Positions 56,910 to 58,940 of a stretch of DNA of 64,000 nucleotides are shown one piece after another; position 1 is the stretch's first letter; each line of letters starts with the position of its first letter. Source of the stretch: Escherichia phage Paul; sequence record NC_070992.1; one strand, written 5' to 3'. The notes under the pieces are model-generated. The model was not told the DNA's origin. It ran no database searches and saw only the letters and a list, made by a program, of their open reading frames with translations. The position numbers and the translations under genes are program-made.

Positions 56910-58940
56910 TTAACCTCTATTCAATGAACATTTAGGAGAATTACAATAAACTTGATTCATAGAACCAAGCGTACAACTTTCAGCATCGCGCCACGGAATC
57001 TGCTTAAAACACTCTGAGCAGTATCCGAGGGTTGACCACATGGCTTTGGTGAAGTCAGTGCTTCGGTTTCCGTCAAAGCTGACAACAGTTTTGCGGAGAG
57101 CTGTTCGTGATTCAGGAAACACACCTGCTTTCTCAGCAGGTTCCTCCTTTTTTGGCTTAGTTGAGATTGCAAAAATACTGTTGCTACGTTTCTCAACATA
57201 AGCATCAACAACATCCTCCAGAGTGATGCCTGTCTGTTTCGCTGAGGAAGGTAATACAGTCATACGACCGATCATATCTTCAGTTACACGTAAAGCAAAT
57301 TCAGGACGACGGGCGTTTGTTGTATCTGTTGCTTTAATCCAGATATAACCATCTTTGATCGTAGCATTAGATACTTTCTTCTTTACTTCTACAGCGCAGA
57401 CTTTACAGATATCTTCACCACGAAGACGACTGAGTTCTTCATCAAACTCATTCTCTGTTTTAACTTCACCACAGATTTCACAAACACCAATAGGAGTCTC
57501 CTCCTCTTCTTCCTCTTTAGGTTTAGTCAAACCTTCCAGACATTCAGGATGCCAGTAGCACTGATATGCGAAGACTGCTTTAGGTGCATCCTTCCAATCA
57601 ATGTGTTTGTCACAACCGCCACAATCACCATGAGAATGTGCTTCCCAGAATTTACGAGTGATAGTAACGCCATTCTTGTTAACGAAACTATCATTCATAT
57701 CAAAAGGGATATCATCATCGAAGTCAGCAGTAGTTGACTCAGGCTCCTTTTTCTCCAGAGATGGGTCAACAAAACGACCTGCTGTGATCACTAAACGAAC
57801 CATAGCATTAACTTCGGAGATGCAGGATACTGTTCCACGGTAAACAATTTTAGGGTCTTTCAGTGCATCCTGATAAGCCTTAATGTCTACGTTATGAACA
57901 TCACCTTCGATATACTCTTGAGACTTCTCATCGTAGATATAACCAATCATCTTACCACGAGAAGGAACAGCACCAGCAGTTGCATAAGGAACAAACTCAT
58001 GTGGTGTGATTTCCACAGTCATGTCGCGGCGAATGTCAATGTTTCGATCGCTTGCGATTTTGTTTTGACTTACTACTGCGTTTCTTCGACGAACGTCTGC
58101 CGCTGTCACTCCCGGCTTCGTGTCGTAAGGATTGCTTGTACTGCTTTTTGAGGAACTTTGATAATTGCTTTGGCTGTAGTTGTTCGAGTAGTAACTGCCC
58201 CAACGATTGACTACCGTAAAAACCGGAAGCTCGTGGGCGACCTCTTCAACCAGTGTCATGCTATTGTTTGACATGTCAAAGATATACTCTGTACCAACTT
58301 TACATTCAAAATGCTCATCAATACGGTTCTTGTGAGACTTAGAACGCTTCAGAATCCACATCAACATATCTTCTTCAGAAGCACCAAACCAATCTCTGTT
58401 ACAACGTGCGAGATGGAAAGGACGCTCTTCATTACGGATGATATGAAGGCGGTTATCAGAAGCGTCATGCCAGATTAAGGTGAAGGCACCATCCAGCTTT
58501 TGAATGGTCTCTGCTGCACCAATAGTGTTAATAGAATGGCAGATGTTCTCACTGTCTACCTCGAAGTTTTTACTGTCAGGTAACAGATCTTGGTCCATCA
58601 AGGTTCCGTTATGAACCAGAGTGATGTTACCATGTTGGAAAGGATGGGCGTTCTTGGCGTTAACTGCACCTTTCGTTGCATGACGGCTGTGACCAACAAT
58701 CCATGAAGGTGCTACAGTGTAAGCTGTTTCACCAGTGGTGTGTTTCTTGTACTCATCTTGAAGGATGAATGCGAAAGAAGGAAGTGCTTCTTTATAAGTG
58801 AAGACCTCTTTAGTGCTCTTACGCTGACCAAAGATACCAGAGGAATGCTGTCCTCGGAATACTCCAGCATAAAAGAGTTGGTTAAATACGTCTAAATCAG
58901 TGCTTGACAGATTACCGCCAGCTAATACGATGCCACAAAT
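56910..58940 (-). CDS. class-II (Ntn) glutamine amidotransferase domain fused to a Cys-rich C-terminal domain; probable AUU start
   Basis: frame open upstream of the track start to 58943; encodes CGIVLAGG ... GHSRHATKG ... HPFQHGN ... HNGTL ... DSE; SD AGGTGG 8 nt before ATT-TGT; no ATG/GTG/TTG in between. Confidence 0.65.
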   Translation of the reverse strand: MCGIVLAGGNLSSTDLDVFNQLFYAGVFRGQHSSGIFGQRKSTKEVFTYKEALPSFAFILQDEYKKHTTGETAYTVAPSWIVGHSRHATKGAVNAKNAHPFQHGNITLVHNGTLMDQDLLPDSKNFEVDSENICHSINTIGAAETIQKLDGAFTLIWHDASDNRLHIIRNEERPFHLARCNRDWFGASEEDMLMWILKRSKSHKNRIDEHFECKVGTEYIFDMSNNSMTLVEEVAHELPVFTVVNRWGSYYSNNYSQSNYQSSSKSSTSNPYDTKPGVTAADVRRRNAVVSQNKIASDRNIDIRRDMTVEITPHEFVPYATAGAVPSRGKMIGYIYDEKSQEYIEGDVHNVDIKAYQDALKDPKIVYRGTVSCISEVNAMVRLVITAGRFVDPSLEKKEPESTTADFDDDIPFDMNDSFVNKNGVTITRKFWEAHSHGDCGGCDKHIDWKDAPKAVFAYQCYWHPECLEGLTKPKEEEEEETPIGVCEICGEVKTENEFDEELSRLRGEDICKVCAVEVKKKVSNATIKDGYIWIKATDTTNARRPEFALRVTEDMIGRMTVLPSSAKQTGITLEDVVDAYVEKRSNSIFAISTKPKKEEPAEKAGVFPESRTALRKTVVSFDGNRSTDFTKAMWSTLGYCSECFKQIPWRDAESCTLGSMNQVYCNSPKCSLNRG

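Follow-up and report, generated by a model that had tools for sequence, protein, structure and literature searches.

A phage glutamine amidotransferase with a C-terminal extension of predicted zinc modules, an OB-like barrel and an internal copy of the SSB tip

Class II glutamine amidotransferases, in which an N-terminal nucleophile (Ntn) domain releases ammonia from glutamine, are best known from GlmS, PurF and AsnB, which have an N-terminal Cys nucleophile, the glutamine-site motifs H-x-R-x-x-T, H-N-G and D-S/T-E, and a C-terminal acceptor-binding synthase domain. A 64,000-nucleotide stretch of Escherichia phage Paul (NC_070992.1; hereafter, the window) contains a gene at 56910 to 58940, which, from its translation and homology, encodes a 676-residue enzyme of this class with a non-catalytic C-terminal extension. 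The Paul protein has the same nucleophile and motifs, but its C-terminal 430 residues comprise a barrel, an acidic peptide and putative zinc modules in place of a synthase domain. Another system that invites comparison is the peptidoglycan amidotransferase GatD/MurT, in which a glutaminase and a separate ATP-dependent ligase amidate a carboxylate and in which the complex contains a Cys4 zinc site. However, GatD is a class I enzyme with a catalytic triad, the zinc site resides in the ligase MurT, and there is no sequence relationship to the Paul protein.

The gene belongs to a phage amidoligase system (PF14395, PF12224; Iyer et al. 2009), for which cell-wall or peptide modification and a block to superinfection have been proposed, as summarised in PMC10580990. 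The window carries the same gene set as the phiEco32-type system. Paul is a Kuravirus, that is, a phiEco32-like podophage; the window is nearly identical to phiEco32, and the region from 54000 to 62600 shares 96% identity with both Shigella phage SGF2 and Escherichia phage NJ01. The counterpart of the amidotransferase gene in phiEco32 is phi32_83, the C-terminal extension of which is 99.5% identical. The gene and all of its features described below lie on the minus strand, and coordinates are those of the window.

Three predicted zinc sites in the C-terminal extension

The initial annotation of the gene described at least five CxxC-like Cys pairs in the extension, spaced like those of zinc ribbons or treble clefts. 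All five of the motifs that it listed are present in the open reading frame (ORF) and are conserved, and its residue numbering agrees with that of the 676-residue protein translated from an ATT start: CGGC is C440/C443, CEIC is C487/C490, CKVC is C512/C515, CSEC is C641/C644 and CNSPKC is C666/C671. The span to which the Cys-rich region had been assigned (56910 to 57600) includes four of the pairs, but CGGC, at 57612 to 57623, lies just outside it; the Cys-rich part runs from 56922 to 57677, and the whole extension reaches to approximately 58205. The residues fall into three sites of four ligands each, rather than five or more independent sites. The first (ZnA) consists of C440, C443, H464 and C467, the second (Zn2) of C487, C490, C512 and C515, and the third (ZnB) of C641, C644, C666 and C671.

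The Cys-pair pattern exceeds that expected by chance. There are 13 Cys residues in the last 240 amino acids and 5 in the first 436 (Fisher p = 0.0018), and four CxxC motifs were reached in 198 of 100,000 shuffles of the tail segment (0.2%). Conservation is stronger evidence for the pairs than these counts. None of the ligand Cys residues varies among 8 homologues of 55-70% identity or among 12 whose identities go down to 34%, and an alignment of 17 family members (down to 28% identity) retains only 50 invariant columns, which include C440, C443, C467, C641, C644 and C666. H464 is invariant in the close homologues, and C461 of the same CYWHPEC sequence is not conserved, being A, S or G elsewhere. 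In distant members, the ligand columns vary only by exchange of Cys and His, at columns 3 and 4; H464 is replaced by Cys, and the last ZnB ligand, C671, is replaced by His in two of the proteins. Such an exchange is, to judge from the alignment, the pattern expected of metal ligands. The four Cys/His ligands, arranged in two pairs and conserved across homologues, together with the predicted topology, make it very probable that the tail contains three metal sites of the zinc type.

ZnA (residues 422-470; 57531 to 57677) is predicted to contain a helix with the sequence T-R-K-F-W, a knuckle formed by C440/C443, a hairpin, and a helix carrying H464/C467. Zn2 (residues 485-520; 57381 to 57488) has its knuckle at C487/C490 and the C512/C515 pair at a helix N-terminus. 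ZnB (residues 622-673; 56922 to 57077) contains C641/C644 and C666/C671 in addition to a clade-specific C656. The consensus shared by ZnA and ZnB is G-x3-T-K-x2-W-x4-7-C-x2-C-x3-I-x-[WF]-x-[DE]-[AV]-x11-13-[CH]-x2(4)-[CH]. Because 32 modules from the 17 proteins align as one clean family of approximately 50 residues with four ligand columns, ZnA and ZnB are paralogous repeats.

Structure prediction, the check that had been suggested for the extension, was carried out with AlphaFold2 (AF2) on residues 283-676 (8 sequences; mean predicted local distance difference test score [pLDDT] of 75) and on residues 417-676 (12 sequences; mean pLDDT of 80). The models consist of well-predicted small domains connected by disordered linkers, with a predicted template modelling score of approximately 0.33, as expected for beads on a string. 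The order of the tail is the barrel, a disordered acidic segment (residues 398-421), ZnA, an acidic linker, Zn2, a small alpha/beta domain, a further linker and ZnB. According to DSSP analysis of the models, the zinc modules adopt a knuckle, beta-hairpin, helix topology with pLDDT values of 85-89. ZnA and ZnB have a common layout, in which a short strand and a helix with T-[KR]-x-x-W precede the CxxC knuckle, the sequence I-x-W-x-D-[AV], the hairpin and the final helix. The second ligand pair is located at the N-terminus of that helix in ZnA and ZnB, and at the N-terminus of a long helix in Zn2. The modelled topology of ZnA and ZnB is that of a treble clef, an assignment made from the predicted secondary structure. 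The treble-clef part of the initial annotation fits the conserved four-ligand sites, the Cys/His exchanges, the predicted topology and the fold matches given below, with the number of sites revised to three.

The zinc modules resemble LIM fingers. The Pfam LIM model (PF00412) matches ZnA with E = 0.0064 and 17.2 bits, compared with a cut-off of 22.9 bits, over model positions 1-27 of 58, which correspond to finger 1, and profile searches of the PDB gave a paxillin LIM domain at E = 0.016 and LMO4 at E = 1.5. When the model of residues 417-676 was compared with the PDB using Foldseek, the six best matches were all LIM domains (E of 0.02-0.9), followed by RING, ClpX-ZBD and MYND domains. ZnA has the finger-1 pattern C-x2-C-x20-H-x2-C, including the sequence YWHPEC[LF], and Zn2, with C-x2-C-x21-C-x2-C, has that of finger 2. 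In contrast, the spacer between ZnA and Zn2 is a disordered acidic linker of 19 residues (pLDDT <50), whereas that of LIM domains is 2 residues, and the distant amidotransferase relatives have C4 rather than C2HC in ZnA. We therefore rejected the identification of ZnA and Zn2 as a LIM domain, because the score is below the gathering threshold and the fingers are not contiguous; the modules are LIM-finger-like, but not LIM.

None of the curated libraries searched has a model of these C-terminal modules. When the 32-module alignment was used in a word-index search of 5.8 billion proteins, no match was found outside the family, and a PDB profile search with the same alignment gave matches at the level of chance (best E = 0.14). 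At the sensitivity used, there is no detectable relative of the module outside this amidotransferase family, and the modules form a new and so far uncurated family within a well-known kind of domain.

An OB-like barrel and an internal copy of the SSB tip

The two most informative features of the extension, which do not appear in the initial annotation and are not mentioned in the annotations of relatives that we examined, are a barrel resembling the oligonucleotide/oligosaccharide-binding (OB) fold and an internal copy of the C-terminal tip of SSB, the bacterial protein that binds single-stranded DNA. The barrel (residues 286-397; 57750 to 58085) is predicted to follow a basic helix and to have five strands in the order b1-b2-b3-helix-b4-b5, and its conserved residues include F316, Y319, G329, G333, Y343, E345 and H349. 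The best Foldseek matches in the PDB were the OB folds of single-stranded DNA (ssDNA) binders, namely, the Ta0387 OB domain, RPA, human SSB1, PriB, E. coli SSB and POT1, with E-values from 6e-3 to 1e-1. A search of BFVD returned two family members, followed by matches of approximately 100 residues at 6e-4 to 2e-2; those with names include DUF669, an SSB, DnaE_OBF, baculovirus Lef-3 and a short phage Gn_AT_II protein. The assignment of the modelled barrel to the OB-like fold class is reasonably supported. That the barrel is an SSB homologue was considered and rejected at the sequence level, since there was no match to Pfam PF00436 at E <= 10 and hhalign against E. coli SSB gave a probability of 10.8%. 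Rather than binding DNA, the barrel could serve to bind an acceptor or a partner.

Downstream of the barrel, within the disordered acidic segment, is the sequence DFDDDIPFD (residues 406-414; 57699 to 57725). Residues 406-413, DFDDDIPF, match the final eight residues of E. coli K-12 SSB exactly, as determined by translation of ssb of MG1655. The segment has pLDDT <50 in the AF2 models. The octapeptide is invariant in the phiEco32-like phages and takes the form L-x-[ED]-L-x-DD[IV]PF in distant members. It is not a C-terminal tip, as it is internal, 263 residues before the stop, and the acidic residue that comes after it is invariant or nearly so. A search of the window and of the remainder of the SGF2 genome revealed no further motif resembling the SSB tip and no phage SSB ending in one, and a phmmer search of the PDB with the acidic segment yielded no match.

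At least 17 host proteins have the SSB tip as their docking peptide (PMC10018359, PMC5872125), and Bas52_0087, a protein of a BASEL phage with an SSB-like fold and an FDDDIPF tip, was recently implicated in host interactions (bioRxiv 10.64898/2026.04.29.721553). In the Paul protein, as in bacterial SSB and in proteins of the Bas52_0087 type, an OB-like fold precedes a disordered acidic segment, which in the Paul protein contains DFDDDIPF. Unlike in bacterial SSB, the motif is internal, and the barrel is acidic, lacks SSB sequence homology and is fused to an enzyme.

The glutaminase domain, its ATT start and the gene cluster

The Ntn glutaminase domain occupies residues 2-245 (58206 to 58937), with R29-G30, H84-x-R86-x-x-T89, H110-N111-G112 and D129-S130 as its conserved motif residues. 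It matches PF13522 (GATase_6) with 55 bits, against a cut-off of 27, and a family profile compared with the PDB matched GlmS (1e-6), PurF (approximately 1e-5) and AsnB (8e-4). These profile matches span the conserved GH-x-R-x-AT, AHPF, HNG and VDSE motifs, which we take, on the basis of the GlmS and PurF structures, to provide the glutamine-binding Arg, the oxyanion Asn-Gly and the Asp. By its sequence, the N-terminal domain is a competent glutaminase. It is followed by a low-complexity linker rich in S, N and Y (residues 246-285; 58086 to 58205). Scans of curated families matched no synthase or acceptor domain in residues 246-676, and the ligases are encoded as separate genes. Because no synthase domain follows the glutaminase, the acceptor chemistry has to come in trans; the ligases encoded in the same cluster are its most plausible source, and we infer that the glutaminase is coupled to them. 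The small alpha/beta domain of the tail (approximately residues 532-593; 57159 to 57344), as modelled by AF2, is restricted to the clade with the same architecture (the phiEco32-like phages and P0009-P0012), and no fold match to it was found with Foldseek.

The sequence at the beginning of the gene reads TAG-AAA-ATT-TGT-GGC-ATC, that is, a stop codon, K, I, and then C-G-I-V-L. Since an Ntn amidotransferase requires Cys as its first residue, the ATT at 58938 to 58940, which directly precedes the catalytic Cys codon and has an in-frame TAG two codons upstream, must be the start. A Shine-Dalgarno sequence, AGGTGGA (58948 to 58954), lies 7 nucleotides upstream. The catalytic Cys is the first residue after the initiator Met, and MCG[IL] or an equivalent N-terminus is found in 51 of 51 relatives (the set is described below). 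The ATT start is conserved in five phiEco32-like loci, and seven distant loci have ATT or ATC, with a Shine-Dalgarno sequence checked and present in six of them; the remaining relatives start with ATG or, in one case, GTG. The program-made ORF list gave only 563 residues, from a TTG at 58601, and the GenBank records use internal starts that yield 650 residues in SGF2 and 562 in NJ01. The annotated SGF2 and NJ01 proteins lack the catalytic Cys because the ATT start was not recognised, and the truncation of the amidotransferase N-terminus in the records is a systematic mis-annotation. The protein is made during infection, as nine of its peptides were detected by proteomics of SU10-infected material (PMC4281155). 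Promoter and terminator scans and RNA folding around the gene start gave nothing above background. The 79 nucleotides that separate the amidoligase stop codon from the ATT contain an 8-bp GC-rich hairpin, GUGCCUCU-GGCAA-AGGGGCAC (58992 to 59012, minus strand), and the fold of the region overall is no better than that of shuffled sequence (z = -0.84).

A HMMER scan of 1.84 billion representative proteins with the whole extension detected only 14 proteins, of which 13 are 600-710 residues long and match from residue 260-310 or thereabouts, the remaining one being a short fragment. Those with a correctly called N-terminus begin with the MCG[IL] Ntn signature. A wider set of relatives, comprising 51 loci that encode related amidotransferases, was obtained from a scan of IMG/VR. 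Long, multi-module tails are present in 12 of the 51; approximately 30 loci encode shorter proteins (360-480 residues) that end in a single W-x5-7-CxxC...CxxC module, as in L021 (CSNCGCRLEIWDAD...ICEDC), and about a dozen have no Cys module. Across the 51 loci, every match below E = 1e-4 to a hidden Markov model (HMM) of the module fell within an amidotransferase ORF, and no significant case was found of the module as a separate gene or fused to another protein of the cluster. Because most of the short-form single modules match the HMM weakly (E of 0.05-5), it is chiefly the common pattern that relates them to ZnA and ZnB.

In the window, the cluster (54142 to 63721) contains genes for a COOH-NH2 ligase, Amidoligase_2, an ATP-grasp enzyme, the class II glutamine amidotransferase and a gamma-glutamyl cyclotransferase, which are the components of a phiEco32-type system, and it is located directly upstream of replication genes. 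Neighbours within 10 kb of the 51 loci were counted using iterated HMMs of the proteins that surround the gene in the window. Amidoligase_2 was found in 51 of 51 loci, the COOH-NH2 ligase and the ATP-grasp enzyme in 50 each, a primase/helicase in 43, a gp82-like protein in 38 and the gamma-glutamyl cyclotransferase in 26; the primase/helicase count in particular is soft, because iterated models can drift. Two further genes, encoding DUF7195 (77 residues; 56674 to 56907), which begins 2 nucleotides after the amidotransferase stop, and a gp84-like protein of 323 residues (61546 to 62517), are confined to loci with a long-tail amidotransferase. They may be partners, or the pattern may reflect only common descent. 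The C-terminal 82 residues of the ATP-grasp enzyme (residues 319-400; 55264 to 55509, minus strand) match phrog_20552, a family of stand-alone 82-residue proteins, which suggests that this C-terminus is a fused accessory domain.

Protein docking and its alternatives

The hypothesis that we favour, with a probability of roughly 0.45, is that the zinc modules are protein-docking elements and that the barrel and the SSB-tip copy form a second hook. According to this model, the C-terminal 255 residues would hold three independently folded structural zinc sites, two of them treble-clef paralogues and one (Zn2) a C4 knuckle-helix finger. Many proteins of this phage-specific Ntn amidotransferase family end in one module of a similar kind, which would have been duplicated and elaborated in the phiEco32 lineage. 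The modules would position the synthase-less glutaminase against the two amidoligases and the ATP-grasp enzyme, and either ammonia or a gamma-glutamyl group could then be passed to a carboxylate that a partner ligase has activated. The second hook, present in the long forms, would consist of the barrel and the disordered DFDDDIPF, with DFDDDIPF plugging into the SSB-tip pockets of host or phage replication and repair proteins.

The initial annotation had left open whether the modules recognise nucleic acid or protein, and it is protein that now appears to be the better reading. Among the 17 family members, the net charge of the barrel is -1 to -6 in 16, that of the linker is -5 to -21, that of ZnA is -9 to +3 and that of ZnB is -4 to +4, and the conserved residues of the barrel are Tyr, Glu and His, not Lys or Arg. 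We favour protein docking over direct binding of nucleic acid because the extension is net acidic. It is also favoured because the fingers are LIM-like and confined to this enzyme family and because a docking peptide has been copied; LIM domains are protein-interaction modules. The substrate targeting that had been ascribed to the fusion is plausible, although more likely to occur through proteins than through nucleic acids.

Three observations weigh against this hypothesis. The matches of the zinc modules to zinc-domain families are all below significance. Most structurally characterised contacts of the SSB tip use the free carboxylate of the final Phe, whereas the motif in the Paul protein is internal and followed by Asp. 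Lastly, loci that lack the Cys module (for example, L022 and L048-L050) keep the same ligases, and the module is therefore not indispensable to the system.

The last observation would also fit a second explanation, which we consider unlikely, namely, that the zinc sites only stabilise small domains of a floppy tail, for instance for oligomerisation, and have no specific role in recognition. The conserved non-ligand residues W432/W635, I447/I648 and W449/W650 are hydrophobic and could form the cores of mini-domains. However, the module has been duplicated and has stayed at the C-terminus in phages that are very divergent, and acidic or polar positions such as D451/D652 are conserved, which suggests a surface that is under selection.

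An equally unlikely scenario is that the barrel and zinc modules bind ssDNA, or tRNA, and that the SSB tip directs the enzyme to SSB-coated intermediates, so that the cluster acts on nascent phage DNA. OB folds and zinc modules recur together in proteins that bind nucleic acids, such as T4 gp32, RPA70, LigA and TiaS, and the best structural neighbours of the barrel, including SSB, RPA, POT1, PriB, DUF669 and Lef-3, are ssDNA-binding OB folds. The exact copy of the SSB tip and the primase/helicase gene that adjoins the cluster at 43 of 51 loci point in the same direction. These similarities are offset by the net acidic charge of the barrel and of ZnA across the family, by the weak Foldseek E-values and missing SSB homology of the barrel, and by the failure of the extension to match any nucleic-acid-binding family. 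Genes for amidoligases and amidotransferases co-occur with thymidine-hypermodification genes in viromes (PMC8989533), and the Gordonclarkvirinae, the subfamily of this phage, are reported to be strikingly resistant to restriction-modification without a known pathway of DNA modification (PMC11990801), but no gene of the 5-HMUDK or aGPT-Pplase type is annotated in the close relative SGF2. One could envision, as a more specific version, that the tail recruits the glutaminase together with the amidoligase, ATP-grasp and cyclotransferase enzymes to SSB-coated intermediates and that the cluster installs an amino-acid-derived or amide modification of phage DNA. A tail that docks to the SSB interactome would fit such a DNA-directed pathway; we nevertheless regard this version as quite improbable.

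With respect to restriction sites, the window strongly avoids CCWGG (7 sites, compared with approximately 87 expected), BamHI (0), PstI (0) and SalI (1) sites, whereas it retains 34 EcoRV, 10 EcoKI, 9 EcoRI and 106 EcoP1 sites. Site avoidance is insufficient as the whole explanation of the reported resistance, given that EcoRV, EcoKI, EcoRI and EcoP1 sites are present.

That the Cys clusters instead bind iron, in rubredoxin-like or Fe-S form, for redox sensing or regulation like the [4Fe-4S] cluster of B. subtilis PurF, is very improbable even though CxxC...CxxC knuckles can also ligate Fe and some class II amidotransferases carry Fe-S clusters, since Cys is replaced by His at ligand positions, as typically seen in zinc sites, the spacing and the modelled topology correspond to a treble clef rather than to a ferredoxin-like fold, and no Fe-S family matched.

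The amidoligase/ATP-grasp/amidotransferase cluster occurs widely among phages whose hosts differ greatly, and since it was first noted in 2009, it has remained without a tested function. Within the system, only the amidotransferase tail resembles a targeting device, and defining its parts therefore provides concrete experimental handles. These are the three putative zinc modules, the barrel with its conserved Tyr, Glu and His, and the exact docking peptide of the host SSB, and they could reveal what the system acts on.

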